Positions 9,401-64,000 of a DNA stretch of 64,000 nt are shown piece after piece. The stretch spans positions 70,949,666-71,013,665 of the forward strand of contig NC_090386.1 of the NCBI RefSeq assembly GCF_036365525.1. The letters are read 5' to 3'. The translations under genes were made by a program, and so were the position numbers. The notes under the pieces are model-generated. The model saw only the letters and a list, made by a program, of their open reading frames with translations. It was not told where the DNA came from and ran no database searches. This DNA is from Heterodontus francisci. Its lineage: Eukaryota. The number at the start of each line of letters is the position of its first letter. Within the stretch, counting starts at the first letter, position 1.

Positions 9401-10769
9401 TATGGTACAAAATACGGCAGTATCGGATTCTGTATTAAATACTCACGACAGTATTGGAATATGGTATTAAATACTCACAACAATATCGGAATATGGTATC
9501 AAGTACTCACAACAGTATCAGAATGATACTAAATTCCCACAACATGATTGGAATATGATATTAAATACCCACAACAGTATCAGTATATGGTATTAAATAC
9601 AACAGTATCGGAATATGGTATTAACTACCTAGAACAGATTCGGAATATGGTATTAACTACTCAGAACAGTATCGGAATGTGGTAGTATCTGCCCAGAACA
9701 GTATTGGAATATGGTACTAAATAACCCATGACAGTATTGGAATACGATAGTATCTACACAGAACAGTATTGGAATATGGTACTAAACACCCATGATAGAA
9801 TCGGAATATGGTTCTAAATACTCACAACAGCATCAAACTATGGTATTAAATACTCACGAGTATCAGAATATGGTATTAAATACCAAGAACAGTATTGGAA
9901 TATCATACTAAATACACACAACAGAATCGGAATGTGATGCTAAATACTCACAACAACATCGGAATGTGGTACTAAATACGCAACAGCATCAGAATATGGT
10001 ACTAAATACTCAGAACAGTATCGAAATATGGTACTAACTACCCACAATAGTATCGGAATATGGTACTAAATACTCAACAGTATCGGAATGTAGTATTAAC
10101 TACCCAGAAGAGACTCGGAATATGGTATTAACTACCCAAAACAGTATGAGAATGTGGCAGTATCTACCCAGAACAATATTGGAATATGGTACTAAATATG
10201 ACAGTATCGGAATATGTATTAAATACTCACAACAGTATTGGAATATAGTATTAAATACTCACAACAGTATCGGAGCATGATACTAAATGCCCACAACATG
10301 ATCAGAATATGGTACTAAATAGTCACAACAGTATCAGAGTACGATGCTAAACATAAAATACTAGTAGAATAAAGTACCATCTTCAACGGATTTGGAATAC
10401 GATACCATATATGCACATCAGAACCAAGAGATCACAACAGATACCCACAGCAGAATTGCAGCACAGGACAAAATAACCATAGCACATTAAGCTGTGGTAC
10501 TAAATACCCATATTAGAATGAAAGTATAATTCAAAATAACAGACTTGCTTTGTGCCAAATATATACTACAGAAACAGAAAATGATACCAATTGCCCACAA
10601 TAGAATTAGGGCATTGTAAAAGAATCATCACTAAAGAATCAAAATATGATAACAAATACCCACCACTGAATCAGAAAATTGTACCAAATAGCCACAACAG
10701 AATTAAAATACAGTATGAAATACACATGAATGAGAAAGTAATGCTAAATACTCACAACAGAATCAGAGA

Positions 10770-11140: not shown

Positions 11141-12104
11141 AATATTTCAAAATGAAACTCTAAACAGAATTGGAACTTATTAACAAATACCCACAACAGT
11201 AACAGAATTTGGTCACAAATACATAGAGCTCAATTAGTACATGATAAAAAAAAATACCCAAATATCCACAACAGGATCAGAATAGGCTATCACATGCACA
11301 CAACAGAATTAGAAAATGGCACAAAATATCCATCACATTACCAAATCACCACAACAGCATCCGAATATGGGATTAAATGCTAGAATTGGACTGTGTCACC
11401 AAATACCCATATCAGATTCTGAACATTGGAACAAATACCCAAAACAGAATCAGAACACAGAACCATATAATCACAGCAGGATTAGAAGATAGCATAAAAT
11501 GCCTAAAACTGAATCAGAATATGGTACAAATACCAAGAACAAAATTAGAATAAGTACCAGATACCCAGAACAAAGTATTGAATATCCAGAACATAATTAA
11601 AATACTATGTCAAAACCCACAACAGAATAAAACTATTCGTCCAAAATTGACAAAAGAATTTATTTTAAAAATGGAAATACCTCCAATAAAATTAGAATAG
11701 AGAACTGAATACCCACAACGAATTAAAATATACTAGGAAATACAAATCATTCAGAACATGTTCTCAAATAACAACAACAACATTAGAATATAGTACAAAA
11801 TACTCACAGCACATTTGGAATATGGTACCAAGTAGAATTAGAATGTAACACTAGACACCCATAGCAAGTTTCAAGGATAATATGAAATGCCTGGTAAAGA
11901 ATTAGAACATGATACTAAGTAATCAGGGCAGAATCAAAACATTGAATCAATCTCCCATGACAAAATTAGAACATAGTAGCAAATATTCAGAACAGAATTG
12001 GAACATAGACATGAACAGAACATAATTAGAATACCATACTCACTTTCCACAATGGAATTAGAACAAAAGACCAAATATACATACAAAAGCCACACACACT
12101 GTGG

Positions 12105-12205
12105 ACCCTGGAAATCTGAAATAAAAACTGAAAATACTCAGCAGGTCTGGCAGCACCCGTGGAGAGAGAAACAGACTTAACATTTCAGGTCAATTTCATC
12201 AGAAC
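12105..12205 (-). mobile_element. Penelope-like element terminal fragment (degenerate)
   Basis: Matches the ggaaatctgaaataaaaac...cagcaggtctggcagca terminal segment also at 22.5, 27.1 and 28.7 kb; minus strand retains CTGATGA...GAAA. Confidence 0.7.
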
Positions 12206-22290: not shown

Positions 22291-22477
22291 CCATTATTTT
22301 TCTGGTGCCAAAATTTACCTGATCTATTGAATTCATCTTGCCGTGGTGCAATTTGAACTTATGACCTCTAAACTGTAAGTCCAATATCATAACCACTAGC
22401 ATATATTGGGGAGGCAGTGGCGTAGTGGTATTGACACTGGACTAGTAACCCAGAAACACAGGGTATTGCTCTGGGGA

Positions 22478-23145
22478 TCAAAACAAGAAATGCTGGAACC
22501 ACTCAGCAGGTCTGGCAGCATCTGTGGAAAGAGAAACAGAGTTAACGTTTCAGGTCAGTGACCCTTCTTCGGAACTGACAAATATTAGAAATGTCACAGG
22601 TTATAAGCAAGTGAGGTGGGGGTGGGGCAAGAGATAACAAAGGAGAAGGTGTAGATTGGACAAGGCCACATAGCTGACCAAAAGGTCATGGAGCAAAGGC
22701 AAACAATATGTTAATGGTGTGCTGAAAGACAAAGCATTAGTACAGATAAGGTGTTAACAGACTGAATATTGAACAGCAGCAAGTGCAAACATGAAAAAAA
22801 ACAGTGGGTAAGCAAACTGAACAAACTAAGATGAAATGAAATAAATGCAAAAAAAAAAGTTGTAAAAAATGGAAAAAAGAAGAAAAGAAAAAAGAAAAAA
22901 CAACTAAAAATGAAAGTAAAATGGGGGGCTGCCATGCTCTGAAATTATTGAACTCAATGTTCAGTCCAGCAGGCTGTAGTGTGCCTAATCGGTAGATGAG
23001 ATGCTGTTCCTCGAGCTTGCGTTGATGTTCACTGGAACACTGCAGCAATCCCAGGAGAGAGATATGAGCAGGGGGGAGTGTTGAAATGGCAAGCAACCGG
23101 AAGCTCAGGGTCCTGCTTGCGGACTGAGCGGAGGTGTTCCGCAAA
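22478..23145 (-). mobile_element. Penelope-like element 3' part (GIY-YIG endonuclease C-terminus plus terminal repeat)
   Basis: HISLLGLLQCSSEHQRKLEEQHLIYRLGTLQPAGLNIEFNNF is typical of the PLE GIY-YIG C-terminus. Confidence 0.85.
22540..22577 (-). ncRNA. Minimal type I hammerhead ribozyme motif in the Penelope terminal repeat
   Basis: Minus strand agtt-CCGAAGA-a-gggtc-act-gacct-GAAAC-GTT-aact: core boxes, stem II, palindromic stem III and 4-bp stem I. Confidence 0.65.
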
Positions 23146-23446
23146 GGGACATGGGTTAGGGTTAGGGTTGTACTCAGTTGTATCTAACCACTACAAAGTC
23201 AAAGGGCTCAGGGGACATGGGTTCAAATCCCACCACAGCAGAAGGTGGAATTTGAATACAATTAATAAATCTGGAATTTAAAAAAGCTAGTCTAATGATG
23301 GCCATGAAACCATTGTCGATTGTTGTAAAAACCTATCTGGTTCACTAATGTCCTTTAGGGAAGGAAATCTGCTGTCCTTACCTGGTCTGGCCTACATGTG
23401 ACTCCAGACCCACAGCAATGTGGTTGACTCTTACATGCCCTCTGAA

Positions 23447-26310
23447 ATGGCCTAGCAAGCCACTCAGTTGTATCTAACCACTCCAAAGTCAATAAAAAGG
23501 AATGAAACGGGACGGACCACCCGGCATCGACCTAGGCACCGGAAACGACAGTGGCAAACCCAGCCCTGTCGACCCTGCAAAGTCCTCCTTACTAACATCT
23601 GGGGGCTTGTGCCAAAGTTGGGAGAGCTGTCCCACTGACTAGTCAAGCAACAGCCTGACATAGTCATACTCACGGAATCATACCTAACAGACAATGTTCC
23701 AAACTCTGCCATCATCATCCCCGGCTATGTCCTGTCCCACCGGCAGGACAGACCCAGCAGAAGTGGCAGCACAGTGTTATACAGTAGGGAGGGAGTTGCC
23801 CTGGGAGTCCTCAACATCGACTCTGGACCCCATGAAGTCTCATGGCATCAGGTCAAACATGGACAAGGAAACCTCCTGCTGATTACCACCTACCGCCCTC
23901 CCTCAGCTGATGAGTCAGTACTCCTCCATGTTGAACAGCACTTGGAGGAAGCACTGAGGGTGACAATGGTATAGAATGTACTCAGGGTGGGGGACTTCAA
24001 TATCCATCACCAAGAGTGGCTCAGTAACACCACGACTGGCCGAGTCCCAAAGGATATATCTGCTAGACTGGGTATGCGGCAGGTGGTGAGGGAACCAACA
24101 AGACGGGAAAACATACTTGACCTCATCCTCACCAATTTGCCTGCTGCAGATGCATCTGTCCATGACAGTATTGGTAGGAGTGACCACCGCACAGTCCTTG
24201 TGGAGACGAAGTCCTGCCTTCACATTGAGGACACCCTTCTTCGTGTTGTGTGGCACTACCACCGTGCTAAAATGGGATAGATTTCAAACACATCCAGCAA
24301 TGCAAAACTGGGCATCCATGAGGCGCTGTGGCCATCAGCAGCAGCAGAATTGTACTCAACCACAATATATAACCTCATGGCCCGGCATATCCCCCACTCT
24401 ACCATTATCATCAAGCCAGGAGACCAACCCTGGTTCAATGAAGAGTGCAGGAGGGCATGCCAGGAGCAGCACCAGGCATTCCTCAAAATGAGGTGTCAGC
24501 CTAGTGAAGCTACAACACAGGACTATCTGCGTGCCAAACGACGTAAGCAGCATGCGATAGACAGAGATAAGCGATCCCATAACCAATGGTTCAGATCTAA
24601 GCTCTGCAGTCCTGCCACATCCAGCCATGAATGGTGGTGGACAATTAAGCAACTAACCGGAGAAGGTGGCTCCACAAATATCCCCATCCTCAATGATGGG
24701 GGAGCCCAGCACATCGGTGCGAAAGATAAGGCTGAAGCATTTGCAACAATCTTCAGCCAGAAGTGGCAAGTTGATAATCCATCTCGGCCTCCTCCTGAAG
24801 TCCCCAGCATCACTGATGCCAGATTTTACCCAATTCGATTCACTCTGCGTGATATCAAGAAACGACTGAAGGCACTGGATACTGCAAAGGCTATGGGCCC
24901 TGACAACACCAGAACCTGCCGCGCCCCTAGCCAAGCTGTTCCAGTACAGCTACAACACTGGCATCTATCCTGCAATGTGGAAAATTGCCCAGATATGTCC
25001 TGTACACAAAAAGCAGGACAAGTCCAACCCGACCATTTACTGCCCCATCAGCTTACTCTCAATCGTCAGTAAAGTGATTTGCTTAGCAATAACCTGCTCA
25101 GTGACGCTCAGTTTGCAATCCGCCAGGGCCACTCTGCTCCTGACCTCATTACAGCCTTGGTTCAAACATGGACAAAAGAGCTGAACTCAAGAGGTGAGGT
25201 GAGAGTGACTGCCCTTGACATCAAGGCAGCATTTGACCGAGCATGGCATCAAGGAGCCCTAGCAAAACTGAGGTCAATAGGAATCAGGGGAAAAACCCTC
25301 CACTGGTTGAAGTCATACCGAGCGCAGAGGAAGATGGTTGCGGTTGTTGGAGGTCAATCATCTCAGCTCCAGAACATCACTGCAGGAGTTCCTCAGGGTA
25401 GTGTCCTAGGTCCAACCATCTTCAGCTGCTTCATCAGTGACCTTCCTTCAATCATAAGGTCAGAAGTGGGGATGTTCGCTGATGATTGCACAATGTTCAG
25501 CACCATTCGTGACTCCTCAGATACTGAAGCAGTCCGTGTAGAAATGCAGCAAGACTTGGACAATATCCAGGCTTGGGCTGATAAGTGGCAAGTAACATTT
25601 GCGCCACACAAGTGCCAGGCAATGACCGTCTCCAACAAGAGAGTATCTAACCATCTCCCCTTGACATTCAATGGCATTACCATCGCTGAATCCCCCACTA
25701 TCAACATCCTAGGGGCTACCATTGACCAGAACTGAACTGGAGTAGCCATATAAATACCGTGGCTACAAGAGCAGGTCAGAGGCTAGGAATCCTGCCGCGA
25801 GTAAGTCTCCTCCTGACTCTCCAAAGCCTGTCCACCATCTACAAGGCACAAGTCAGGAGTGTGATGGAATACTCTCCACTTGCCTGGATGGGTGCAGCTC
25901 CAACAACACTCAAGAAGCTCGACACCATCCAGGACAAAACAGCCCGCTTGATTGGCACCCCATATACACACATTCACTCCCTCCACCTCCGACGCACAGT
26001 GGCAGCAGTGTGTACCATATACAAGATGCACTGCAGCAATGCCCCAAGGCTCCTTAGACAGCACCTTTCAAACCCGCGATCTCTACCAACTAGAAGGACA
26101 AGGGCAGCAAATACATGGGAATACCACCACCTGCAAGTTCCCCTCCAAGTCACACACCATCCTGACTTGGAACTTTATCACCGTTTCTTCACTGTCGCTG
26201 GGTCAAAATCCTGGAACTCCCTTCCTAACAGTACTGTGGGTGTACCTACCCCAAATGGACTGCAGCAGTTCAAGAAGGCAGCTCATCACCACCTTCTCAA
26301 GGGCAATTAG
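23447..26310 (+). pseudogene. APE endonuclease-reverse transcriptase ORF of the tRNA-headed LINE (stops and frameshifts)
   Basis: ORF-track pieces 23774, 23987, 24350, 25079 and 25759 tile into one ~950-codon ORF ending HLLKGN*. Confidence 0.85.
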
Positions 26311-27025
26311 GGATGGGCATAAATGCTGGCCTGGCCAGCGACACCCACGTCCCATAAATGAATAAAAAAAAATATTACCAGCAGATTTCCTCTGGCATTG
26401 CTCACAGTAAATCAGAAGCATGGTGCAGAACAAGCAAGACAAGAACATTGAGATTGGGACCAAATGTGACACAGACATGAAGCATACACTAGACACAAGA
26501 CCTTTAACATATTACAGATAGATGTTAAAAAGTCAGATATGAAAGAACCTGGAGAAGAAAAAATGGCTGGATCTGTAAAAATGGCAGATATGTAAAAATG
26601 ACAGTTTCCAAAAAAACTACTCAGAAGGCAAGATGTGGCATAAGTTTCGAAGTAAAAAGCACCAACTCCAGAGATTTTCCCTCCTTTGGAAATTTTCATT
26701 CTCCCAATAAATATCTTGAGTGTTTTCTCAAGAATTCAAGCTTTCTTAGCATTTAAGCAACTTTATCAAAGTGAGTAGAAACATATTCCTTAAATTGGGG
26801 TTCCCAAACTGTGGCACATGTAGCCCTGGCAGTCTCTCAGGGGTACATGGAGGAAATTGTCCAATGACGGATCCTTTTGCATGCCCCTCCACTGCGTTCA
26901 CTCTCACACGCCTCTTTGTTTTCTCCCATTTCACTGTAAATTGTTACGATTTGCATTCAATTAGGAGCTGCAGGCTTTCAGTCACTGGCATTGACGGCAC
27001 TATGGGCAGTTAAATAAAAGGGTCT

Positions 27026-27160
27026 GTTCCGAAGAAGGGTCACTGACCCGAAATGTTAACTCTGCTTCTCTTTCCACAGATGCTGCCAGACCTGCTGAGT
27101 GGTTCCAGCATTTCTTGTTTTTATTTCAGATTTCCAGCATCCGCAGTATTTTGCTTTTAA
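27026..27160 (+). mobile_element. 135-bp Penelope terminal fragment beginning with a hammerhead motif
   Basis: Flanked by 16-bp TSD ttaaataaaagggtct; starts gttCCGAAGAagggtcactgacccGAAA. Confidence 0.85.
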
Positions 27161-28625
27161 TTAAATAAAAGGGTCTTTCAGGTTTGCTGGCAGCATTGAT
27201 CTGGGTTAAACTTTTTGGTAAGTGAAGCTGCCACTTGCTTTGTTAGGTCGCTTCAAATAGACCATTAAGAATATTACCAAGGTCAATACTGACCAGACAG
27301 TACAGGAGGTGGTGGAGGGAAGTTGCAAATGTGCTGGAATATTCCTTGAGTTAATCTGTTCAGTTTTAGTTTTAAAAATCGTTGCTTGTTGTTGCCCAAT
27401 GTTTTCTCCTCCTTTGTAGTGCCCTTCCCCCTATCATTGAAGGTGCTAGTTTTGACTCCTATACTAGTTCTTTGGGAGGAATTCAAATTATTTTATGCTT
27501 TGAAACCAGTCATTTTACTGAGAAAACCTTCATTAATTTTCACCAACTTCACAGGCTGACTGAGCTGACCTCCACCGATCCCAACTAACCTGAAACACGT
27601 AAATTGACTAAGAAACACAAATCGTTAAAATGTGAAATGTTTTAATCTAAAATGTTAATGTTTTGAAGAAACAAAATATTCAAAGCAACAGTGTAAGCAA
27701 TCCTACTTTCAGATGTGGTTGATGTTAAGTACAATATGATGCATTAAAAATAATGCATTTGGAGGAAGATAAAAGTTCACTTAAAAAGTGGACATGTTGT
27801 AGTTTGCAGATTCAGTGATTGCAAGACCGAATGATACCCAGTGCTGAGAATTGCGTTTACTAAAAACGGTTTGGCGTCAGTTTGTTTCTAGGTAAAATAA
27901 CCCTCTGCATTCTAGAACTAGGCAGCATCTAAAAATGTTTCTGGGAAATGTCAAATAGGAAGGAATGACCAAAATTAGAGTCTTAATTGTTCGTAGTAGA
28001 TTAGGTTAAACTGATGGGTCTGTTATTGTAGATTTAGGTGAACCTGATAGGAGAGATCCGTTCTGTACCTAATGAAACATGAACAGCTGGGTCCGCTACA
28101 CATTCATAAATTCATCTGCAGTACCCATGCCGCACGACTTATCAATAAAAGTACAAGAGAACCTCCTTGTCATGACAACTGACCCCGCACTCAAGATAGA
28201 ATTCCAACAAAAGCAGTTGGCTGAGTTTTAAGTCCAAATGCCAGCGGAGTTCCCTGAATTGTCAGACAGGTCTGTCAAGGTTTGATATCGTTTGACACAG
28301 CTTACTTGTATGAAAGTGGATTTTCATCACTCAGTTCAATGAAACCCAAGTATCGTCAGCGATATGTAGAAAACAACTTCAGACTAAAACCATCACCTGT
28401 CACTCCAAACGTTACGCACCTACGCTCGAACTAACAGCCTCATGTGTCACATTAATGGTGGGTAGTACTAGTAAGACATTGTATGTGTGTCTTATAATTT
28501 GTACAGTTTCTACAATGCTTGGTCATTAAAGGGGTTAAAATATTAAACCTGTTTGCTGGTAGAGATATGCGGGAAGTTGGTGGATCTGAGATCTGGAAAC
28601 TGGTACGCAACAAGTTAAGTTTGGG

Positions 28626-28758
28626 TAATAAAAGCAAAATACTGCGGATGCTGGAAATCTGAAACAAAAACAAGAAATGCTGGAATCACTCAGCAGGTCT
28701 GGCAGCATCTGTGGAAAGAGAAGCAGAGTCAACGTTTCGGGTCAGTGACCCTTCTTCG
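28626..28758 (-). mobile_element. Penelope terminal fragment inserted into the hAT right TIR
   Basis: 7-bp TSD gtttggg; inverted relative to the 27026 copy. Confidence 0.85.
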
Positions 28759-28861
28759 GTTTGGGAACCTCTGCCTTAAACAATTGTGTTCAAATAAGTG
28801 CCATTTCATGCAGTCTAATATGATGGTGAAGGTTTTATTATTATACAGCTGCCTGATGGTG

Positions 28862-33789: not shown

Positions 33790-36700
33790 GGGTGGGTATG
33801 TCCTGTCCCAATAGCACAACAGACCCACCAGAGGTGGTGGTACAGTTGTATATAACTCTCCCTAGTGGAGAGGTCAATTACCAGGGGGCACAGATTTAAA
33901 GTGTTTGGTGGAAGGATTAGAAGGGACATGAGGAAAAAGGTTTTCACCCAGAGGGTGGTAGGTGTCTGGAATTCACTGCCCGGATCGATGCTGGAGGCAG
34001 AAACCCTCAACTCTTTTAAAAGGTACCTGGACATGCACTTGAAGTTCTGTAACCTGCAAGGCTACAACCAGGTGCTGGAAGGTGGGATTAGATTGGGCGG
34101 CTAGCTTTTGCAGCCGGCACAGACACGATGGGCTGAATGGCCTCCTTTTGTGCCGTAACATTTCTATGGTTCTATACAGTTGGGAGGGAGTGGCTCTGGG
34201 CATCCTCAACATTGATTCCAGACCCCATGAAGTCTCATGGCATCAGGTCTAACATGGCCAAGGAAATCTCCTGCTGATTACTACCTACTGCCCTCCCTCA
34301 GCTAATGAATCAGTGCTACTCCATGTTGAACACCACTTGGAAGAAGCAATGAGGGTAGCAAGGGCATGGAATCTTTTCTGAATGGGGACTTCAATGCCCA
34401 TCATCAAGAATGGCTGAGTCGCACCACTACTGACCAAGCTGTCTGAGTCCTAAAGGACATATCTGCCAGACTGTGCTGGCAGCAGGTGGTGAGGAAACCA
34501 ACAAGATGGAAAAACCTATTTGACCTCACCCTCACCAATCCAGCTGTTCCAGATGCATTTGTCCATGACAGTATTGTTAGGAGTGACCATTGCACAGTCC
34601 TTATGGAGACTAGCCCCCGCCCCGCCACCCCCCCCCCCCACCATCGTGTTGTGGGACACTACCGCCATGCTAAAGGTGATAGATTCAGAATAGATCTAGC
34701 AGCTCAAAACTGGGCATTCATGAGGCGCTGTGGGCCATCAACAGCAGCAGAATTGTATTCAACCACAATCTATAACCTCATGGCCCGGCATATACTTCAT
34801 TCCACCATTAACATCAAACCAGGGAATCAAACCTGGTTCAATAAGGAGTGCAGGAGCGCATGCTAGGAGCAACATCAAGCATACGTAAAAATGAGATGCC
34901 AACCAGGTGAAGCTACAACATAGGACCACTTGCATGCTAAACAGCAGAAGCACATGCGATCTCCAGCAATTAGCAATCCCAAAACCAATGAATCCGATCA
35001 AAGCTTGGTAGTCCTGCCACATCCATTCGTGAATGGTGATGGACAATTAAACAATGAACCGGAGGAGGATGCTCCACAAACATCCCCATCCTGAATGATG
35101 AGGGAGCCCAGCATGTCAATGCAAAAGACAAGGCTGAAGCATTTGCAGCCATCTGCAGCCAGCAGTGCCGAGCAGATGACAGTCTTCAGGTAATCCATTT
35201 CACTCCATATGATATCAAGAAATGGCTGACGACACTGGATACAGCAAAGTCTGTGGGCTCTGACAACATCCCAGCTGTAGAACTGAAGACTTGTGCTCCA
35301 GAACTAGCCATGTCCCAAACCAAGTTGTTCCAGTACAGCTACAATACTGGCACCTACCCGACAATGTGGAAAATTACCCAGGTATTTCTCGTCTACAAAA
35401 AGCAGAACAAATCCAATCCAGCCAATATCAACCATTCAGTCTACTCTGCATCATCAGCAAAGTGATGGAAGATGTCATCGACAGTGCTATCAAGTGGCAC
35501 TTAACCAGCAATAACCTGCTCACCTACGCTCAGTCTGGGTTCCACCAGGGCCATTGCACTCCAGACCTTATTACAGCCTTTGTCCAAACATGGTCAAAAG
35601 TGCTGAATTCAAAAGATGAGGTGAGAATGACTGCCCTTGACATCAAGGCAGCATTTGACTGAGTATGGCATCAAGGAGCCCTAGCAAAATTCAACTTAAT
35701 GGGAATCAGGAAAATACCTCTCTGCTGGTTGGAGTCATACCTAGCACAAAGGAATGTGGTTGTGGATGTTGGAAGCCAGTCATCTATGCCCCAGGACATC
35801 ACTACAGGAGTTCATCAAGATAGTGTCCTAGGCCCAACCATCTTCAGCTGCTTCATCAATGACCTTCCCTCCAACCCATAAGGTCAGAGGTGGGGATGTT
35901 TGCTGATGATTGCACCATGCTCAGTACCGTTCGAGACTCCTCAGATACTGAAGCAGTCTGTGCCCACATGCAACAAGACCTGGACAACATTCAGGCTTGG
36001 GCTGCTAAGTGGCAAGTAACAATCATGCCACACAAGTGCCAGGCAATGACCGTCCCCAACAGGAGAGAATCTAACCACCTTCCCTTGACAATCAACAGCA
36101 TTACCACTGCTGAATCCTCCACCGTTAACATCCTGTTGATTACAATTGATCAGAAACTTAATTGAACCAAACATATAACTACTGTGACTACAAGAGCAGA
36201 TCAGAGGCTGGGAATTCTGCAGCGAGTAACTCACCTCCTGACTCGCCAAAGCCTGTCCACATTTACAAGGCACAAGTCAGGAGTGTGATGGAATACTCTC
36301 CACTTGCCTGGATGAGTGTAGCTCCAACAACACTCAAGAAGCTCGGCATCATCCAGCACAAAGCAGCCCACTTGATTGACACCCCATCCATCACTTTAAA
36401 CATTCACTCCCTCCACAGCGGCGCACAATGGCAGCACAATGCACTATCTATAAGATGCACTGCAGCAACTTGCTAAGGCTCCTTCGAGAGCACCTTCCAA
36501 ACCCATGACCTTTTACCACCTAAAAGGACAAGAGCAGCAGACACCTGGGAACACCATCAACTGCAAGATCCCCTCCAAGTGACACACCATTCTGACTTGG
36601 AAATATATCACCATTCCTTCACTGTCGCTGGGTCAAAAACCTGGAGCTCCCTTCCTAACAGCACTGTGGGTGTACCTACACCACATGGACTGCAGTGGGT

Positions 36701-36800
36701 CAAGAAGACTGCTCACTACCACCTTCTCAAGGGCAATTAGGGATGGGCAATAAATGCTGGCCTTACAAGTGACACTCCCATTCCAAGAATGAAAAAAATC
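33790..36800 (+). mobile_element. Older 5'-truncated copy of the tRNA-headed LINE family
   Basis: Colinear with ~23725-26370; same APE/RT motifs and tail. Confidence 0.9.
33855..34172 (+). mobile_element. CR1 3' fragment nested in the LINE above
   Basis: RGHRFKVFGG...FTQRVVGVWNSLP; tata duplication at the junctions. Confidence 0.85.
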
Positions 36801-37229: not shown

Positions 37230-38447
37230 CAACTTCCTTGCTGTCAGCCTTCACCACAGTAAGAAAGTAGCTTATCGCTCCTCTGAGGAGTAGCAATAGG
37301 ATCAGCCACACCAACAGCAGCAGCAACAACAACAAGGGCAACAGCAGCACCAGGAGCAACAACACCAGCAGCAGCTGCCTTCTCCACAGCTACATGCTGC
37401 TCCATGGGACAGAGGGGATGGGCATGGAGCTCCAGCTCAAAGGAGACGATACCTCCAGCACAGCGTCTACAGACAGAGGGAGAGCTTCCTCAACATGACA
37501 GAGCAACAGTGTCTCAGGGGGATCAGGCTTTGACGGCAGGCCATGACTGACATCTGTAGCCTCCTGGAACAAGACCTCTTTCCAAGTGGACCGGGTGCCC
37601 ACCTATTGCCACTGGCCATCATGGTCATCACAGCCCTGAATTTCTTTGCCTCCAGATTCTTCTAGAGATCAGCTGGAGACATCTCCGGGATCTTACAATC
37701 TGCTGCCCATAAATTCATCAAACAGGTCACCAATGCCTTGTTTTCCAAGGCCGCCAATTATATCAACTTCGCCATGGATGAGGCCAGTCAAATCCAGAGG
37801 GCTGTCGGCTTCACTGCAGAGGCTGGATTCCCACAGGTGCAGGGAGTCATTGATTCTATGCATGTGGCAATCAAGGCATCATCAGATCAGCCAGCAGTCT
37901 TCATCAACTTGAAGGGCTTCCACTCCCTCAATGTCCAGTTAGTTTGTGACAACCGAAAGGTTACCATGCATGTCTGCACTAGATATCCAGGGAGCTACCA
38001 TAACTCATTTATTCTGTGGCAATCACATCTCCCGCAAGTTTTCATTCCTCCACACAGCCTCAGCAACAGGCTCCTGGGAGACGAGGGTCAGCCTCTGAAG
38101 ATCTCGCTGCTGACTCCTATGACGAACCCGATCAGTGAACCAGCGGAGAGATACAGCAGGAGCTACATGACCACAAAGGTGATAATTGGCTTGCTGAGGA
38201 TGCAGTTCAGGTGCTTGGACAGATCTGGAGGAGCCCTTCAGTATGCCTCATCAAGGGTCTCCAGGATTGTTCTGGTCCGCTGTGCTCTTCACAACATCAC
38301 GCTGTAGAGAGGAGGGGAGCTGCAGAAAGAGGAAAGTGCAGAACTTCAGAGGAGGAGGAGGAACCAGATGTAGCCATGGTGCCTGCAGCCACACACCTGG
38401 CTGCCGGAGAAGCCCGTGATGGATTCATCCAGGCCTGCTTTATTTAA
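37230..38447 (+). pseudogene. Harbinger DDE transposase (HARBI1-like) with N-terminal poly-Q; disrupted
   Basis: GFPQVQGVIDSMHV, KGFHSLNVQLVCD, YPGS, LLGDEG, FRCLDRSGGALQY, CALHN motifs; in-frame stops. Confidence 0.88.
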
Positions 38448-44559: not shown

Positions 44560-46670
44560 CCTAATGATCTTACATGTACCACAAAAAACAATGCTTTGTT
44601 CTGGATATATACATAATTTTGACTTGGGCAAACAGAATGCAATATTGAAATTGGCTGATGACACAAGTTTGGTTTGGCAAACAGTGACGAGGACTGTAAA
44701 AAAACTTCAGAAACACATTGACAGGTTAGGAAAATTAGCACACAGGATGTTGATGCAATTTAATGCAAAATGTGAGGTCCTTAATTTTGAGAAGAAAATC
44801 AAGGAAGGTGAGTATACACTCAATGTCCTAGATGCTAACGGATGTAGATAAACAGAGAGACCTTGAGGTTCATGTACATAATTCTCAAAGTGGAGGTGTA
44901 GGTGGATACAGCCATAAAAAGGAACTTTTGGTCTTATAAGTAGGGGCATAGAGTCCAAGGGCAAATGGCTAATGAGATTTCAACAAAGCAATTGTGCAGA
45001 AACAATGAGAGTTGTATTTATAGTTTTGGGGCTCTCCATTATCGAAAGGGGATTAAAGCCACAGAGTGCATGAAGCATTGATTTACCAGGATGATAAGAG
45101 GGTGAGAAATTATTGTTATGAGGAGAGACTTGAGCTACTTGGATTATTTCCCCCGGAACAGAGGTGGCTCAAAATTAATGAAGGGTTTTCATACAGTGAA
45201 TCTGTAAAATTGTTTGCTTTTGTTGGGAAGACAGTGATGAAAGGTGATGCAATTTTAAATGGTCACTAAGAGAAGGGTAGGCGGTGGCGTAGTGGTATTA
45301 TCATTGGACTAGTAACCCAGAGACCCAGGGTATTTCTCTGGGGACATGGGTTTGAATCCCACCACAGCAGAAGGTGGAATTTGAAGTTAATTAATAAATC
45401 TAGAATTAAAAGCTAGTCTAATGATGGCCATGAAACCATTGTCGATTGTTGTAAAAACCCATCTGATTCATTAATGTCCTTTAGGGAAGGAAATCTGCTG
45501 TCCTTACCTGGTCTGGCCTACATGTGACTCCAGACCCACAGCAATGTGGTTAACTCTTATACGTTGACGTAACCACTACGAAGTCAATAAAAAGGAATGA
45601 AACTGGACGGACCACCCGGCATCGACCTAGGCACCGGAAAGGACAACGGCAAACCCAGCCCTGTCGACCCTGCAAAGTCCTCCTTACGAACATCTGGGGG
45701 CTTGTGCCAAAGTTGGGAGAGCTGTCCCACAGACTAGTCAAGCAACAGCCTGACATAGTCATACTCACGGAATCATACCTTACAGACAATGTCCCAGACA
45801 CTACCATCACCATCCCCGGGTACGTCCTGACCCACCGGCAGGACAGACCCACCAGAGATGGTGGCACAGTGGTATACAGTAGGGAGGGAGTTGCCCTGGG
45901 AGTCCTCAACATCGACACCGGACTTGCCTGGATGGGTGCAGCTCCAACAACACTCAAGAAGCTCGACACCATCCAGGACAAAGCAGCCCGCTTGATTGGC
46001 ACCCCATCTACAAACATTCACTCCCTCCACCACCGACGCACAGTGGCAGCAGTGTGTACCATCTACAAGATGCACTGCAGCATTGCACCAAGGCTCCTTA
46101 GACAGCACCTTTCAAACCCGCGACCTCTACCAACTAGAAGGACAAGAGCAGCAAATACATGGGAACACCACCACCTGCAAGTCCCCCTCCAAGTCACACA
46201 CCATCCTGACTTGGAACTATATCGCCGTTCCTTCACTGTCGCTGGGTAAAAATCCTGGAACTCCCTTCCTAACAGCACTGTGGGTATACCTACCCCAAAT
46301 GGACTGCAGCGGTTCTAGAAGGCAGCTCACCACCACCTTCTCAAGGGCGATTAGGGATGGGCAATAAATGCTGGCCTGGCCAGCGTCGCCCACATCCCAT
46401 GAATGAATTTTTTAAAAAAGGGGAGAGATGTTAAGCGAAATAGCTTTATACAGATGGTCATTGAGTATAGAATGCTTTTCTACCCAAGATTGGTGAGGTG
46501 GGGACCATTGCACCTTTTAAGGGAAAAGTGAGTGAACATTTGAAGTAGAGCTTTGGGAGCGCACAGGGTGGTCGAATTAGTTTTGGATTGTTCTAACAAA
46601 GAACTGAGAGAGACACAATGTCCAAGTAGCCTCCTTTTGGGCAGTAAACTTTTTTGTTCTATGGAAATGA
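44560..46670 (+). mobile_element. Old CR1 LINE split by the 45275-46419 insertion
   Basis: KLADDT...QFNAKCEV, YEERLELLGLF; 3' part resumes at ~46420. Confidence 0.7.
45275..46419 (+). mobile_element. Internally deleted tRNA-headed LINE (head + EN start fused in frame to C-terminus + tail)
   Basis: A box 45285, B box 45349; 181-aa ORF GVLNIDTG|LAWMGAAP skips ~2 kb; intact tail. Confidence 0.9.
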
Positions 46671-47319
46671 TAAGGACCATCCTGGGCACTATGCTGAAGT
46701 ACCAAAAAAAAGGAAAGCACAGTTCCAAATCTCACAGAAAGCACCATGCCAGTTCTTGATGCCAGTAGATTTGCCTCACTGGCCATAAAACTGCCAATAT
46801 TGATCTTGTCAGGATTGAAATAAAGAATTTCCCCATCAGCTTTTTTTTAAAAAAAAATTAGAGTTGAATACATTTTGATGAATTTTGTCACCCATCTTGC
46901 TATTCGGTTAATTTATTTAAAAATTTTAAGTAAATTAGATAAAGTAAGCTATAGATTGTAAGTACTTAATGGGCTCTACATTGCAAATTATCATCACTAA
47001 ATGTAGTTATTAACCTATGATGTATTGATTTAGCTCCCTTGTGCCATCTAGCACAGTAATTCCTCCAGCTAAGTGCCCTGCTTGTACCATCAACACATAG
47101 TATTTCAACAAAATATTCACAAAAAATAGAAACATGTGAAAGGAGGCTAGCATGGATCATAATCCTTTGTATGCATTGGATTTTGATAAGGAGAACAGAT
47201 GGTAACAAGTATGATAAGTGATGCAGTCACGATTTAGATTTCAGGTTTGGCTCATCCCTCTGCCAAAGGCACTGTTTTATCCAATCAGAAACCATACAAG
47301 AGTGGCTTGGGTTAACAGT

Positions 47320-48166
47320 CTTAGTGTAGTATTCTGGGCCCAACCATCTTCAGTTGCTTCATCAATGACCTTCCCTTCATCGTAACGTCAGAAGTGGGGA
47401 TGTTCGCTGATGATCGCACAATATTCACTACCATTTGTGGCTTCTCAGATACTGAAGCAGTCCATGTAAACATGCAGCAAGACCTATCAACATTCAGGCT
47501 TGAGCTGATAAGTGGCAAGTAACATTCGCGCCCCTAGCCAAGCTGTTCCAGTACAGGTATAACACTGGCATCTACCCGGCAATGTGGAAAATTGCCCAGC
47601 TATGTCCTGTCCACAAAAAGCAGGACAAATCCAATCTGGCCAATTACCACCCTATCATTATACTCTCGAACATCATCACCGTGATGGAAGGGGTCAGCGA
47701 CAGTGCTATCAAGTGGCACTTGCTCAGCAATAACCTGCTCACTGACGCTTAGTTTGGGTTCTGCCAAGCTACCCAGCTCCAGACCTTATTACAATCTTGG
47801 TCCAAACATGGACAAAAGAGCAGAATTCCATCAAGGCAGCATATGACTGAATATGGCATCAAGGAGCCCGAGCAAAACTGGAGTCAATAGAAATCAGAGG
47901 GAAAACTCTCCACTGGTTGGAGTCATACCTCGCACAAAGGAAGATGGTTGTTGGAGGTCAATCATCTCAGTCCCAGGACATCATTGCAGGAGTTCCTCAG
48001 GGTAGTATCCAAGGCCCAACCATCTTCAGCTGCTTCATCAATGACCTTCCCTCCATCATAAGGTCAGAGTGGAGATGTTCGCTAATGATTGCACAATGTT
48101 CAGCACCATTTGCCGCACCTCAGACATTGAAGCAGCGTATGTCCATATGCAGCAGGACCTGGACAA
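47320..48166 (+). mobile_element. Rearranged RT fragment of the tRNA-headed LINE family (continues at 53270)
   Basis: GPTIFSCFINDLP..FADD appears twice; internal back-jump at ~47527. Confidence 0.85.
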
Positions 48167-49725
48167 CATAGAACCATAGAATGTTTATGGCACAGAAAGA
48201 GGCCACTTGGCCTATGGTGTCTGTGCTGGCCGAAAAACGATCCACCCAGTCTAATCCCAACTTCCAGCATTTGATCTGCAGCCCTGCAGATTACAGCACT
48301 TGAGGTGCATAACCAGACTCCTTTTGAATGAGTTGAGGGTTTCTGCCTCAACTACCGTTTCAGGCAATGTGTTACAGACCCCTACCACTCTGGGAAAAAA
48401 CGTTTTTCCTCATCTCCCCTCTGATCTTTCTGCCAATCACTTTAAATTTATGCCCCCTAGTCACTGACCTCTCTGCTAAGGTAAAGAGGCCCTTCACATC
48501 CACTCTATCCAGACCCCTCACAATTTTGTACATTTCAATCAGATCTCCCCTCAGCCTTCTCTGTTCCAAGGAGAACAACTCCAGCCTATCCAACCTTTCC
48601 TCATACCTGCATTTTTCCAGTCCTGGCAACATCCTCGTAAATCTCCTCTGTACCCTCTCTAGTGCAATTATATCCTTTCTGTAATGAGAACTGCACACAG
48701 TACTCAAGTTGTGGCCTAACTAATGATTTATATAGTTCCAGCATAACCTCCCTGCTGTTATATTCTATACCTCGGCTAATAAAGAATGTCTTCATTGCAG
48801 GCATCTATATGCATTCTTAACCACCTTATCGACCTGTCCTGCTACCTTCAGGGATCTGTGGACATTCACTCCAAGGTCCCTCACTTCCTCTACACCTCTC
48901 AGTATTCTCCCATTAATTGTGTATTCCTTTGCCTTACTTGACCTCCCCAAATGCATCACCTCACACTTCTCTGGTTTGAATTCCATTGCCACCTTTCTGC
49001 CCATCTGACCAGACCATCAATATCTTCTTGCAGCCTATAGCTATCCTCCTCGCTATCTACCACAAGGCCAATCTTTGTGTCGTCTGCAAACTTTTTGATC
49101 ATGGCCCCTACATTTACATCCAAATCGTTGATATATACCACAAAAAGCAGGGGACCCAGTACTGAGCCCTGTGGAACGCCACTGGAAACAGCCCTCCAGT
49201 CACAAAAACACCCGTCAACAATTACCCTTTGATTCCTGCCACTACAATTGATTCCTACAATTTTGTATCGACCTTACTACCTTTCCCTGGATCCCATGAA
49301 CTTTTATTTTTTTAACCAGTCTGCCATGTGGGACCTTGTCAAAAGCCTTGCTAAAATCCATGCAGACCACATCAACTGCACTACCCTCATCTATCTTCCT
49401 TGTTACTTCTTCAAAAAATTCGATCAAGTTGGTCAGACAAGATCTTCCCTTAACAAATCCATGCTGACTCTGCTTGATTAATCTGCGCCTTTCTCAGTGA
49501 CAGTTTATCCTGTCTCTCAGAATTGATTCCAGTACTTTGCCCACGACTGAAGTTAGACTGACTGGCCTGTAACTATTTGGTCTGTTCCTCACTTCCTTTT
49601 TAAACGAAGGTACAACATTAGCACTCCTCTTATCCTCCGGCACCACACCTGTATCCAATGAGGACTGGAAAATGATGTTCAGACCTTCTGCTATTTCCTC
49701 TCTTGCTTCTTTTAACAGCCTGGGT

Positions 49726-50013
49726 TTGAGCATGGCTACCCGACCCAAACCCGTCCGGGCCCAGCGACCTATGTCGGGTTCGGGTCAGGTCGGGCCGGGT
49801 CAGACACAGTGACAGCAAGGACGTTAAGGCGGGAAATGTGCATTCGGACTCCGCACTGGTCTGCAATGAGTGATTCCATCCAAGGTAGAGCACAACCTCT
49901 TTAATATAATCAACTTCATTCCGGTGGTTGGATCGGGTCGGGTCAGGCTTGGGTCAGATATGGTTCTGTTGGGCTCAGGTCGGGTTTCAATTGCAGACCG
50001 AAGCAGGCCTTTA
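49726..50013. mobile_element. hAT-type MITE with CCCGA repeats (opposite orientation to 38976)
   Basis: End agcaggccttta; 8-bp TSD gcctgggt/gcctgggg. Confidence 0.8.
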
Positions 50014-50606
50014 GCCTGGGGTACATTTCATCTGGTCCTAGTGATTTATCAACTTTCACGGATGCTAATCCCATTAATACTTCCTCTCCACCTCTGTTTA
50101 TCGCATCCAATACTTCACATTCCTCTTCCTTAACCACAATATCTGCATTGTCCCCCTCGTTTGTGAAGACAGACGCAAAGAATTCGTTAAGAACAATGCC
50201 ATCATCTTCCACCCCTACACATAAGTTACTTTTTGGTCTTTTATGGGCTCTAGTCTTCCCTTAGTTATCCTCTTACTCTTAATGTATTGATAAAACATCT
50301 TTGGGTACACCTTGATTTTGCTTGCCAATGTTCTTTCATGCCCTCTTAGCTTTCCTAATTTCCTTTTTGATTTCACCCCTCCATTTTCTGTACTCCTCTC
50401 AGCTTTCTGTAGTATTGAGTTCTTGGTGTCGGACATAAGCATTCCTTTTCTGCCTTATTTTACCCTGTAAGCTCCTTGACATCCATGAGATTTTAGATTT
50501 GGCTGCCCCACCCTTTTTCTTTGTGGGAACATGTTTAATCTGAACCCCTTGAATCTCCCCTTTGAATGCTCCCACTGCTCTGACACTGATTTATCTTCAA
50601 TTAACT

Positions 50607-50999
50607 GGGGAGCTGGTGGCGTAGTGGTAATGTCACTAGACTAGTAACCGAGAGACCCAGGCTAATGCTCTGGGGATATGGATTTGAATCCCACCATGGC
50701 AGATGATGAAATTTGAATTCAATTAATAAATCTGGAATTAAAAAGTTAGGCTAATGGTGACCATGAAAAAATTGTTGATTGTTGTAAAAACCCATCTGGT
50801 TTACTAATGTCCTTTAGGAAATCTGCCATCCTTATCTGGTCTGGCCTACACATGATTTCAGACCCACAGCAACATGATTGACTCTTAAAAATGTCCTCTG
50901 AGGGCCTAGCATGACACTCAGTTCAAGGGCAATTAGGGGTGGGCAATAAATGCTGGCCTTGCCAGCAACACCCACATCCCATGAATGAATTTTTAAAAA
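50607..50999 (+). mobile_element. tRNA-derived SINE made of the head/5'UTR and 3' tail of the tRNA-headed LINE
   Basis: A box, degenerate B box, junction cactcagtt|caagggcaattaggg at ~50923, hairpin tail; degenerate ~9-bp TSD. Confidence 0.88.
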
Positions 51000-53269: not shown

Positions 53270-53990
53270 ACATCCAGGCTTGGGCTGATAAGTGGCAAGT
53301 AACATTCACGCCTCAAAAGTGCCAGGCAATGACCATCTCAAACAAGAGAGAATCTAACCATCTCCCCTTGACATTCAATGGCATTACTATTGCTGAATCC
53401 CCCACTATCAACATCCTGGGGGTTACCATTGACCAGAAACTGAACTGGACCAACTACATAAATACTGTAGCTACAAGAGCAGGTCAGAGGCTGGGAATTC
53501 TGCAGCGAAAAACTCACCTCCTGTCTCTCCAAAGCCTGTCCACCATCTACAAGGCACACATCAGGAGTATGATGGAATACTCCCACTTGCCTGGATGGGT
53601 GCAGTTCCAACAACGCTCAAGAAGCTTGGCACCATCCAGGACAAAGCAGCTCACTTGATCGGCAGCCCATCCACCACCTTCAACATTCACTCCCTCCACC
53701 ACCAACACACAGTGGCAGCAGTGTGTACCATATACAAGATGCACTGCAGCAGCTCACCAAGACTCCTCTGACATCACCTTCCAAACCCATGACCTCTACC
53801 ATCTAGAAGAACAAGGGCAGCAGATATATCGTACACCAGCACCTGCAAGTTTCCCTCCAAGTCACACACCATCCTCATTTAGAACTAAATCGCTGTTCCT
53901 TTGTTCCTTCACTGTCACTGGGTCAAAAACCTGGAATTCACTCCCTTACAGCACTGTGGGTGTACCACATGGACTGTAGTGCTTCAAGAG
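53270..53990 (+). mobile_element. Continuation of the 47320 LINE copy (RT C-terminal region)
   Basis: DIQAWADKWQVTF...; rejoins ggacaac|atccaggct across the CR1 insertion. Confidence 0.9.
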
Positions 53991-54454: not shown

Positions 54455-56541
54455 GGCCTGAATTTTATACAGGCACCATGCTCTGTGGCGGTGCCCTTTA
54501 AACTCAGCGGGGTGCCCGCATTTAGCGGCTGCCGCAGAGCCCCCGCGATATTACGCATGGGGCTCATTAGCATCACTGCACCAAGCCTCCCCCCACATAT
54601 TATGTGGGGAGAGGTGGGACATTCGGCGCAGTGAGGAACCCTGTGACAGTTGTGCAGCAGGTGCTGGGGCCCTATTTAAGCACCCCAGCACCTGCTTCCT
54701 GACAGCTGTCAAAGAAATACTCACCTGACTGCTAAAGAGTGGGGCTGCTGTCAATCTGGGTCACAGACCTGAAAGTTAACTCTGCTTCTCTCTCCACAGA
54801 TGCTGCCTGACCTGCTGAGTTACCCCAGCACTTTCCACTTTGCTGCCACATACTTAACCTGCTGTGTCCCAGTGTCCTATGAAGTTGCGATCCTCTTCTC
54901 CCACTCAAGTGTAACATTCCTCCTTGTAGGCGTGCTGCACCTGGGTGAATAATCTGAATTTTGCACATTCCAGGACGTGGGACTGAAATATACCAAGGTA
55001 TTACAGAGGTTTATTGAGAACACACTGACACAAAAGGGAATGCATGGGTGTCACAGCAATGTAAATACGTCTTTCACTAAATGTTCCTCATCAACATGTG
55101 TGTCCTTTTCTCTGTGTGAATGATGTGTGCCAGCATGTAGCACCAATGTCACATCTCTTTGCACCATTGGCCCTCAGGGGAGCCTACGTATGCAATAACA
55201 TCATTGCCAAGCCACCATTACTCATGAGCGTCTCCACGGATGCAGTGACATGAACATTGGCTCAGTCAGCTGCTGCCTCTAATGCTTTACACAAGGATGC
55301 TGCAGATGTGGACTGGTGCACAGCAGGTGAGCGAGGGTGATGTGAGGCTTGCAGAGCTCATGTCGGTTCCTATGGTGCAGAGAGCCTTTGTCTGATAAGC
55401 CACTGCCATACATCCCTAGCTCACAGCTAGCCCTGCTTGCAGATCCTGGGTGCCATCAGCCCTCCCTACGTCTTTCATGTTGTAGGTCCTCAGCATCCTC
55501 ATAGTCCGAGGAGGAATCCTGTTGACGTCTATCCTCATCATGCCAGACCTGGCCCCTATTGCAGGTCATCCTTGAGCAGGGCACAGAGACGTGTCACCAA
55601 CCTCTCTGCATGCGCAATCTCCTCTGACACTGGTGCTCTGACATCCGACGGCATGTCATTTGGGGCCTGTAGATGCGGGGCAACCGTAATGGCTGGCTCC
55701 CCTTGGGGGCATTTGCTCATGACCGGGGGCCTCTACGTGGATTATACCTGCCTGTTGATATTGCCTCTGGCACATACGGATCCTCACGAGCAGAGATTCA
55801 CACAATGTAGGATGACCCATGCCTTTTTCCTTGTGATAAATAAAGTTGAACTCATCATGTATTCGAAGGTTCCCAACAGGGCAGGGATTGGTGTTGACGG
55901 GTACATCAGCTCTTTCCTGGATCAACTATGTGGCATGCCATGGCATTGCCCATCTGGCCAACACTCAAAGTGGCACAGCATGACCACATCAACATCCTAC
56001 TAGCTGAATCGATTGCCCCCACCATCCATATAACCTTAATGCTCCTGCACTTTCTGGCACCCTCCCCACACACAAGGTACCTACCGAGTGTGCCATTGCT
56101 CCTTCACGAAAACAAACAAACACAGTACCTCCCTTCATGCCAGCAGAGCCTTCCCTCCAGTAATCTCAGACCCCCTCCCTTTAAGTATGCAGAGTGAGAC
56201 CCCTGAAAAGGACCTTCTGTCGCAATACCTTCTGCCTCTGTGGACCCACCAACTTTTCAAATCGTGAACGGACGGCACGTGACAACCGCCCGTTCAGCGA
56301 AAAATCAGGAAGCGTCAATGGAGAGGCAGTGGGCTGGATAATCTGCAGAGGTAAGTCCAGTTTAACATATTGTAATGGGGTGCTGCCACGGTGTGGCAGG
56401 GCAGCCGCACCAAGGTCCCCCCCACTGCCAGTAATTTGCGGCGGGCCCTTCTCGACATCGCAGGTTGAGGCGGGTCTCTCCCCCCAGGATTAGCCCCCAC
56501 TCCGCGACCCACGGGGTCGAGGGGCCAGTAAAATTCAGCCC
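54455..56541 (-). mobile_element. Internally deleted Harbinger element
   Basis: TIRs ggcctgaatttta / taaaattcagccc; 3-bp TSD TGT; minus-strand transposase N-terminus remnant (RIYRPQ..MSEHQCQRRLR..LCALLKDDLQ); Penelope fragment at 54757-54845. Confidence 0.8.
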
Positions 56542-62468: not shown

Positions 62469-62598
62469 ACAACTGAATGGCTTGCTGGGCCATTTCAGAG
62501 GGCAGTTAAGAGTCACCCACATTGCTGTGGGTCTGGAGTCACAGGTCGGACCAGGTAAGGACGTCAGATTTCCTTCCCTAAAGGACATTAGTAAACCT
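62469..62598 (-). mobile_element. Fragment of the tRNA-headed LINE/SINE 5'UTR
   Basis: Reverse complement matches ~23339-23470. Confidence 0.8.
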
Positions 62599-63756: not shown

Positions 63757-64000
63757 TCTTTTTTTTCAATTCACAAGATGTGGGCATCGCTGGCCAGACC
63801 AGTCTTTATTGGTCATCCCTAGTTGCCCTCAAGAAGGTGGTGGTGAACCACCTTCTTCAATTATTGCAATCCATGTGGTGAGGGAGTGCTACTAGGTCGG
63901 GAGTTCTAGGACTTTGACCCAATAACGATGGAGGAATGACAATATATTTCCAAGTCGGGTTTGTGTGTGACTTGGAGGGGAACTTGAAGATGGTGGTGCT
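63757..64000 (-). mobile_element. 3' end of another tRNA-headed-family LINE copy (runs off the window)
   Basis: Reverse complement of the tail and ORF end seen at ~26125-26370. Confidence 0.85.

Follow-up and report, generated by a model that had tools for sequence, protein, structure and literature searches.

A stretch of 64,000 nt from the horn shark Heterodontus francisci (assembly GCF_036365525.1, contig NC_090386.1, positions 70,949,666 to 71,013,665 of the forward strand; hereafter the window) contains a long interspersed nuclear element (LINE) of the Zenon type, an internally deleted copy of this LINE (1,145 bp) and a short interspersed nuclear element (SINE)-like unit of 393 bp. All three have their head and tail in common, as determined by self-comparison of the window and by pairwise alignments (Table 1). 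We consider it reasonably probable, on the basis of these sequences, that the elements have a two-step origin, in which an early elasmobranch Zenon took an RNA polymerase III (Pol III)-type head, and internal deletions then made SINE-like derivatives. Because the parent LINE carries the head, the 393-bp element appears to be a Zenon deletion derivative and a tRNA-type SINE at once. The initial annotation of the window, made from the letters alone, had already recognized the common head and tail and the sizes of 1.1 and 0.39 kb. The ~3.2 kb that it gave for the full copy is correct without a 729-bp nested insertion (3,235 bp), the actual span being longer. It had further presented the origin of the SINE by deletion and the capture of the head by the LINE as alternatives; both events are supported, and they are best read as successive.

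We classified the long element as an elasmobranch Zenon LINE because of its domains, the lack of ORF1, its A tail and the match of published consensus heads. In a profile search, the reverse transcriptase (RT) domain matched RVT_1 (E = 1.7e-28), and a weak match to Exo_endo_phos was obtained. The open reading frame (ORF) aligned over its full length with relatives of ~940 aa, as a single ORF encoding an apurinic endonuclease (APE) and RT. The ~400 bp upstream of the endonuclease hold no ORF of at least 150 aa, and A runs terminate all five Zenon tails in the window. Zenon has been defined as ORF1-less and poly(A)-tailed, and Supplementary Table 2 of the same study provides 10 vertebrate Zenon consensuses (7 from elasmobranchs, 2 from hagfish and 1 from coelacanth) (PMC13343379), of which we compared the first 400 letters of each entry by eye and by motif search. 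All seven elasmobranch consensuses (from five sharks and rays) agree with the head and 5΄ untranslated region (UTR) of the window element, and the head is absent from these 400 letters in all three hagfish and coelacanth entries. The elasmobranch consensuses (CarCar, RhiTyp, ScyCan, SquAca and HypSab_Zenon) further resemble the window element in length (2.9–3.3 kb), in their single APE-RT ORF without ORF1 and in their poly(A) tail; however, the main text of that study contains 'tRNA' nowhere and 'SINE' once, in a reference title, and does not appear to describe the head or a derived SINE. A whale shark preprint names, in its available text, only CR1-Zenon (10.1101/443036). In an RT tree of 103 rows, built by a quick method and including no named Zenon, the element was placed apart from the classic CR1 of the window; its neighbors were unnamed single-ORF proteins, with SH-aLRT values of 91–93 and no starred set, i.e. 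without strong support.

The head was characterized using A- and B-box motifs taken from the Pol III consensus. An A-box-like motif lies 10–11 nt from the 5΄ end in all three heads of the window, and a B-box-like motif follows 64 nt beyond the A box in both unbroken heads. The strict A pattern has four occurrences on the window's + strand, three of them inside these heads, and the exact B-box word occurs three times in the supplement text (cells of 400 letters), each time in a shark Zenon. From the motifs and their position, the head may be tRNA-derived. Among relatives of the CR1 group from metagenomes (the best 80 of 514 confirmed loci), no pair of A and B boxes was found upstream of the ORF, many of these loci lacking the 5΄ end. 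A single one of the 80, the invertebrate-type locus L003, lies in the Zenon-like clade; it has no A/B pair, its 5΄ UTR is different, and it possesses an in-frame ATG as well as a poly(A) end. The head looks like an elasmobranch acquisition predating the split of sharks and rays, because it is present in 7/7 elasmobranch consensuses and absent from 3/3 other vertebrate Zenons and from L003; the same distribution supports capture of the head by the LINE.

Some further observations concern this region. Two successive stem-loops occur in the head (window 45299–45345), which in the dogfish consensus look, by eye, like a duplicated anticodon arm; in the other shark consensuses the second stem has altered letters with pairing kept, again by eye. 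Diagnostic head letters gave no polarity, since the white-shark-type arm is also found in the ray, and reads of organism A (see below for the runs) include dogfish-type heads. In the 5΄ UTR of L003, a motif repeated twice (390–480) resembles, by eye, one in hagfish Zenon-2, which suggests another 5΄ module among headless Zenons.

The 393-bp element consists of the LINE head up to position 23468 joined to the LINE tail from 26297. Between these positions 2,828 bp are absent, and the junction contains a single shared T and nothing that is foreign to the LINE; the direct joint between the 5΄ UTR and the last codons and tail that was initially annotated is thereby confirmed. Since it contains only the 5΄ and 3΄ ends of its partner LINE, the element corresponds in structure to a bipartite non-autonomous LINE (SIDE). 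It equally resembles a tRNA-derived SINE (SINE2) in having a 5΄ end with A and B boxes, a tail shared with a LINE, no coding sequence and a length under 600 bp, and no internal TTTT precedes its 3΄ end. In pairwise alignment, the head is 85–86% identical to both LINE-type heads, and the tail 91% over 68 bp. Its shared head stops right where the tail begins, as would result from an internal deletion.

We aligned four of 24 sequencing runs to positions 23207–26380 of the long copy, namely raw reads (X21) and contigs (X1) from organism A, and contigs from organisms C (X8) and E (X20). X1 may come from the same source as the window; runs X5–X7 and X9–X19, whose word shares were small, do not enter the results. 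In X21, 338,577 of 11,989,820 records were aligned (2.8%), a proportion that gives no genome share because this is a capture library. The junction results refer to the best 15 of 28,029 joints, and counts in the three contig runs are incomplete. Thirteen of these 15 joints connect 23431–23470 with 26294–26299, with 1,332 X21 reads in total, versus 4,632 reads that run on into LINE sequence at 23483; the fifteenth joint is a deletion of the long copy itself. The joint of the window SINE, 23468–26297, was represented by 770 reads with ~218 starts in X21 and by contigs in all three contig runs. In addition, loose ends behind 23469 run into the tail in 588 contigs of X8 and 1,171 contigs of X20. 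The breakpoint of the 393-bp element is shared by many copies in all four runs; the SINE is a real family with many copies under at least three organism labels, and it has been amplified in several species.

Two other joints were found in organism A, with none in X8 or X20: 23470–26297 (357 reads) and 23479–26233 (a 6-letter filler; 45 reads with 36 starts, and two contigs with a summed depth of 528). Both hold LINE spacer letters past the common break, and the latter also has a different 3΄ break, for which reasons they could hardly derive from anything but a headed LINE. The joint 23479–26233 represents a second deletion family, apparently younger. The anatomy of the junction of the 393-bp SINE, together with these species-restricted junctions containing LINE-only spacer letters, supports internal deletion as its origin. 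At least one further derivative class has arisen later in one lineage, as its junction demonstrates, and read counts point to its amplification; SINE-like derivatives have thus probably arisen more than once. Loose ends at 23318, in 1,010 contigs of X1 and 641 of X8, mark another head subtype, which is similar to the dogfish consensus. A pattern made of the junction flanks had no match in metagenome contigs, and its two matches in viral contigs were rejected as unrelated chance matches.

These results can be arranged into the following scheme. In the first step, prior to the shark–ray split, a Zenon LINE without ORF1 would have acquired a new 5΄ end, made up of a tRNA-derived head with A and B boxes and a non-coding body of ~250 bp. 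The most likely source would be a pre-existing SINE-like Pol III RNA that a single insertion linked to the LINE, presumably by a route like that of sense Alu/L1 chimeras in mammals (PMC11838501). As a speculation, the spacer behind the body, which is A-rich and varies in length, could be the old tail of the joined RNA. The headed LINE would then have become the elasmobranch Zenon family. In the second step, one internal deletion from the end of the body to the last codons would keep the head and the 3΄ stem-loop, the latter being the RT recognition site in established LINE biology. One deletion would suffice because a promoter-like head and an RT-binding tail lie on one element; its product would be a complete SINE-like unit, which the LINE protein could copy in trans.

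Several observations weigh against this two-step origin. The designation of the head as tRNA-derived relies on motifs and position, whereas Rfam matches were below threshold (tRNA, 14 bits, E = 6.4; tRNA-Sec, 15.2 bits, E = 0.85), ARAGORN found no tRNA gene, and folds of single copies gave no cloverleaf. No donor SINE carrying this head with another tail was found. As the comparison covers the best 15 of 28,029 joints and contig counts are incomplete, the absence of the 1.1-kb joint gives no more than an upper bound. The common break follows two T's, as the end of a Pol III RNA would. Finally, the SINE copy looks older than the LINE copies, as the LINE-type heads are 93.5% alike versus 85–86% for the SINE, and by eye it shares some letters with the dogfish-type head, which would suit an old SINE lineage.

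For the oldest SINE junction, there are two rival histories. One, to which we assign a small probability, starts from a free Pol III RNA having a fixed 3΄ end, which would have been fused on separate occasions to a long stretch of Zenon, yielding the headed LINE, and to one of 67 bp, yielding the SINE; the oldest junction would then need no deletion. A fixed RNA end would produce the same 5΄ break in both, next to the two T's, and U6 RNA has reportedly been ligated to L1. Sense, full-length Alu/L1 chimeras are moreover known in mammals (PMC11838501). However, such independent chimeras require a free RNA or SINE, and none was found by Rfam, nor any other tail among the loose ends listed; they also fail to explain the 23470 and 23479 junctions, which hold LINE-only letters.

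The other history, which we regard as slightly less probable still, is that the SINE came first: the tRNA head, body and Zenon tail would have been assembled in the usual way, and the LINE would later have taken the 5΄ part of the SINE. The greater divergence of the SINE copy is in line with this order, as is the summed word depth in X20, a biased measure, of ~2.06 million for the head versus 0.06 million for the LINE body. Zenon-tailed SINEs with unrelated heads also occur in butterflies and bivalves (PMC6685494, PMC11481361). Nevertheless, one old copy gives no date for a family, and the capture would have to hit the boundary between body and tail, in an element of 390 bp, to within ~2 nt and leave no remnant of the tail in the LINE. 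The preferred order places head capture first and deletion second.

The 1,145-bp copy had been annotated as the middle member of a LINE-to-SINE deletion series. Relative to the LINE it lacks 2,051 bp, and its 5΄ and 3΄ parts are 93.5% (ungapped columns) and 94.9% identical to the LINE, respectively. As stated in that annotation, the start of the endonuclease is joined in frame to the C-terminus of the ORF. The endonuclease start of the fused ORF matched Pfam Exo_endo_phos below the cut-off (E = 5.5e-4), the ORF lacks a Met ahead of residue 127 and a start ahead of the junction, and it stops prematurely at a private TAA where the long copy has TCA. A search with the fused protein yielded 20 hits from 463 candidates, none of which spans both halves or covers more than 53% of it. 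At the junction, for which an ACTC-like microhomology was initially described, the exact match comprises 2 nt (AC, chance 0.17) and lies within an imperfect repeat matching at 7 of 9 positions (chance 0.004 in 20,000 random deletions, by a criterion chosen post hoc).

The same copy has undergone a second deletion, in which 41 bp of the 5΄ UTR were replaced by 10, and the 41 bp include the junction stretch that the SINE keeps. The SINE does not descend from the 1.1-kb copy, because that copy lacks a 5΄ UTR stretch retained in the SINE, and therefore the three elements do not constitute a nested series; this copy has no part in the ancestry of the SINE. The copy, probably the product of a homology-guided deletion in a young LINE copy, appears to be single or rare and is probably incidental, and its in-frame join likewise looks incidental. 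Mid-size losses are common, since the full copy also bears private ones, visible as loose ends at 24909 and 25079. A true graded series, in which the 1.1-kb form represents an amplified intermediate family and the parent of the shorter forms, is in our judgment very improbable. The in-frame join, the intact head and tail and the 7-of-9 homology would fit such a series. Against it stand a junction outside the best 15 of 28,029 joints, the missing SINE-kept sequence and an age lower than that of the SINE, the lack of a protein hit (0/20) beyond 53% of the fused ORF, an in-frame chance of 1 in 3 with no start before the junction, and the private losses of the full copy. The initial annotation had proposed counting breakpoints, and in the four runs the SINE joint proved to be multi-copy, while the 1.1-kb joint lay outside the best 15 of 28,029, a result that goes part of the way, short of proof of uniqueness, towards the refuting condition named in that annotation.

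We further considered whether the LINE itself might be transcribed by Pol III. A bold and rather doubtful proposal is that Zenon is transcribed end to end (3.2 kb) by Pol III from the tRNA-derived head, is kept free of TTTT terminators and needs neither a cap nor an in-frame AUG for its translation, such that deletions sparing the ends would yield SINEs repeatedly. Pol III terminates at runs of at least four T's. In the sense strand, TTTT occurs three times in 9,275 bp of Zenon copies in the window (17 expected from base content) and 46 times in the classic CR1 copies, which total 9,438 bp (23.5 expected), in a count of non-independent copies that omits the terminal T runs at the 3΄ ends of the 1.1-kb copy and the SINE. 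None of the three Zenon runs is common to two copies, and at the long copy's single run, position 24827, ~93% of reads have C (from 40 of ~6,090 variant rows). Among 56 ORFs of relatives of at least 300 aa, TTTT had a minimum of 1.6 and a median of 7.3 per kb, and a fit to their T content gave 8.3 expected runs per 3.2 kb (P(≤1) = 0.002, overdispersion ignored). However, a codon shuffle within the element gave 2.9 expected runs (P(≤1) = 0.16) and a dinucleotide shuffle 2.3 (P = 0.29); base composition may account for much of the scarcity, and in view of these shuffles we did not accept it as proof. It is a hint, without proof, that the whole LINE is transcribed by Pol III. Also contrary to Pol III transcription, AATAAA and the poly(A) tail fit Pol II equally, and the B box is degenerate in the first 400 letters of the ray consensus. 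If the proposal were true, the boundary between LINE and SINE would be erased, and Zenon would be a protein-coding retrotransposon with a Pol III promoter.

With respect to translation, the ORF2 frame has no ATG ahead of the endonuclease motif, and the ATG at 23502..23504 (+) is out of frame with the endonuclease; in many invertebrate-type relatives, a Met stands directly ahead of this motif. The 23502 ATG starts an ORF of 46 codons (23502–23640) that overlaps the endonuclease start out of frame. By eye, this ATG occurs in six of the seven published elasmobranch consensuses, and the ray consensus has the same arrangement within its first 400 letters. Read-through of the stop in ATG-GCC-TAG upstream of ORF2 was rejected, as its frame relative to ORF2 varies among the published consensuses (by eye).

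The 3΄ stem-loop had z values of about –2 in all three tails that were folded. A T run stands before the A tail, 38–44 nt past AATAAA, in two independent insertions (46408–46419 and 50990–50999), a combination known from the mammalian Pol III SINEs B2 and Ves (PMC10572872). Two of the five window tails share this likeness, but the T run is missing from the other three, and the SINE tails of X8 and X20 read AACAAA (loose-end consensus).

The following comparisons are drawn from the available parts of the cited sources. The Persaeus SIDE of Lepidoptera resembles the shark element in size (260–390 bp), in combining Zenon 5΄ and 3΄ ends, in being multi-copy, and in having several origins with microhomology at the break (PMC6740152). 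Zenon therefore yields deletion derivatives repeatedly in Lepidoptera as well; however, Persaeus is described with a variable middle and without tRNA homology or a Pol III promoter (PMC6740152), whereas the shark element has A and B boxes and no middle of its own. In Bov-tA, WALLSI2 and SINE1-1_EBu, the body and tail of the SINE likewise come from 5΄ and 3΄ parts of a LINE (PMC5786205, PMC7245038). In these bipartite SINEs the deletion came first and an RNA head was added later, and the contributors found were RTE and Vingi only; the shark LINE was already headed and belongs to the CR1 group. HE1 (V), SacSINE1 (Deu) and CmiSINE (CORE) of cartilaginous fishes also have a tRNA-type head and a LINE-derived tail (PMC3747384, PMC5499810). 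Their descriptions set them apart, as their partners are HER1 (CR1) or of L2 type and share the tail alone, whereas the tail of the 393-bp SINE is that of Zenon, not of CR1-HER1 or L2. The known shark SINEs accordingly have other LINE partners (PMC3747384, PMC1845163, PMC5499810).

The U6/L1 and Alu/L1 chimeras resemble the headed LINE in that a Pol III RNA is fused in sense at the 5΄ side of a LINE, but they are described as single insertions with no amplified autonomous family (PMC11838501). A common tRNA head of salmonid RSg-1 and SlmI, a possible precedent, was not confirmed; the sources consulted mention the tail partnership alone. No account of a tRNA-headed Zenon, or of the 393-bp SINE, emerged from a literature search; Repbase, Dfam, SINEBase and most subscription papers lay outside it, and the SINE may already be named in a repeat database.

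Table 1. Zenon-related features in the window
Feature	Position	Strand	Details
Full-length Zenon LINE copy	22407..26370	+	net length 3,235 bp; head in two parts (22407-22477, 23207-23468), then A-rich spacer, A tail at end; one broken APE-RT ORF, ~23456-26310; no ORF1
Nested insertion inside LINE head	22478..23206	+	729 bp: other repeat and repair-like filler
Older Zenon copy, 5΄-broken	34173..36798	+	79% to full copy
Internally deleted Zenon copy	45275..46419	+	1,145 bp, within older CR1; tRNA-like head, 5΄ UTR (net loss of 31 bp, private to this copy), endonuclease start, C-terminal coding, tail
A-box-like motif	45285..45295	+	10 nt from element start
B-box-like motif	45349..45359	+	64 nt after A box start
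Fused ORF	45554..46249	+	231 aa; endonuclease start and ORF C-terminus in frame
Filler	45560..45569	+	10 nt in place of 41 nt of LINE 5΄ UTR (23434-23474)
1.1-kb junction	45915..45932	+	LINE 23828 to 25880
3΄ stem-loop	46354..46419	+	AATAAA (46363) inside, then T6, A6
Zenon RT region, rearranged fragments	47320..48169	+	Window self-comparison
SINE-like bipartite derivative	50607..50999	+	393 bp, within older CR1; ~316 bp LINE 5΄ end, final ~67 bp of LINE, T5/A5 end
SINE head boxes	50617..50691	+	A box 50617, degenerate B box 50681
SINE junction	50914..50932	+	LINE 23468 to 26297; best-supported joint in raw reads
Zenon 3΄ fragment	53270..53989	+	Self-comparison and pairwise alignment
Head-body fragment	62469..62597	-	Stops at LINE 23471, truncated by CR1
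Zenon 3΄ end	63759..63997	-	Continues past window edge

No target-site duplications were evident at the three insertions. The 3΄ side of the nested insertion contains TTAGGG twice (23156) and also a copy, 23 bp long, of LINE 23470–23492; it resembles filler from templated repair to which telomere-like sequence was added. Inverted ends of 131 bp (97% alike), possibly of the Penelope type, flank ~1.7 kb at 27029–28759; the end sequence also begins the nested insertion and recurs at 12098–12192 and 54758–54833. Elsewhere, a tandem array of diverged units with a ~60-bp period extends over 1.3 kb (9072–10351), and an ORF of 213 aa (37666–38307) may encode a Harbinger-type transposase, which it resembles in its motifs. 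Zenon-derived segments also lie inside the annotated horn shark proteins P0006, P0010, P0012 and P0031 (jmjC8, prostacyclin receptor, FERM-domain), and may be either exonized copies or annotation errors.

In the usual account, a SINE is built from separate parts, and deletion products of LINEs are Pol II elements (PMC5786205). If the two-step origin holds, the whole SINE kit would be present on an autonomous element, so that a SINE could be born in one deletion, which is an unusual route to a new repeat family. Junction classes of differing taxonomic range would then represent replicate SINE births that are open to dating. In addition, repeat libraries containing only the LINE would mask the 393-bp SINE as LINE fragments.

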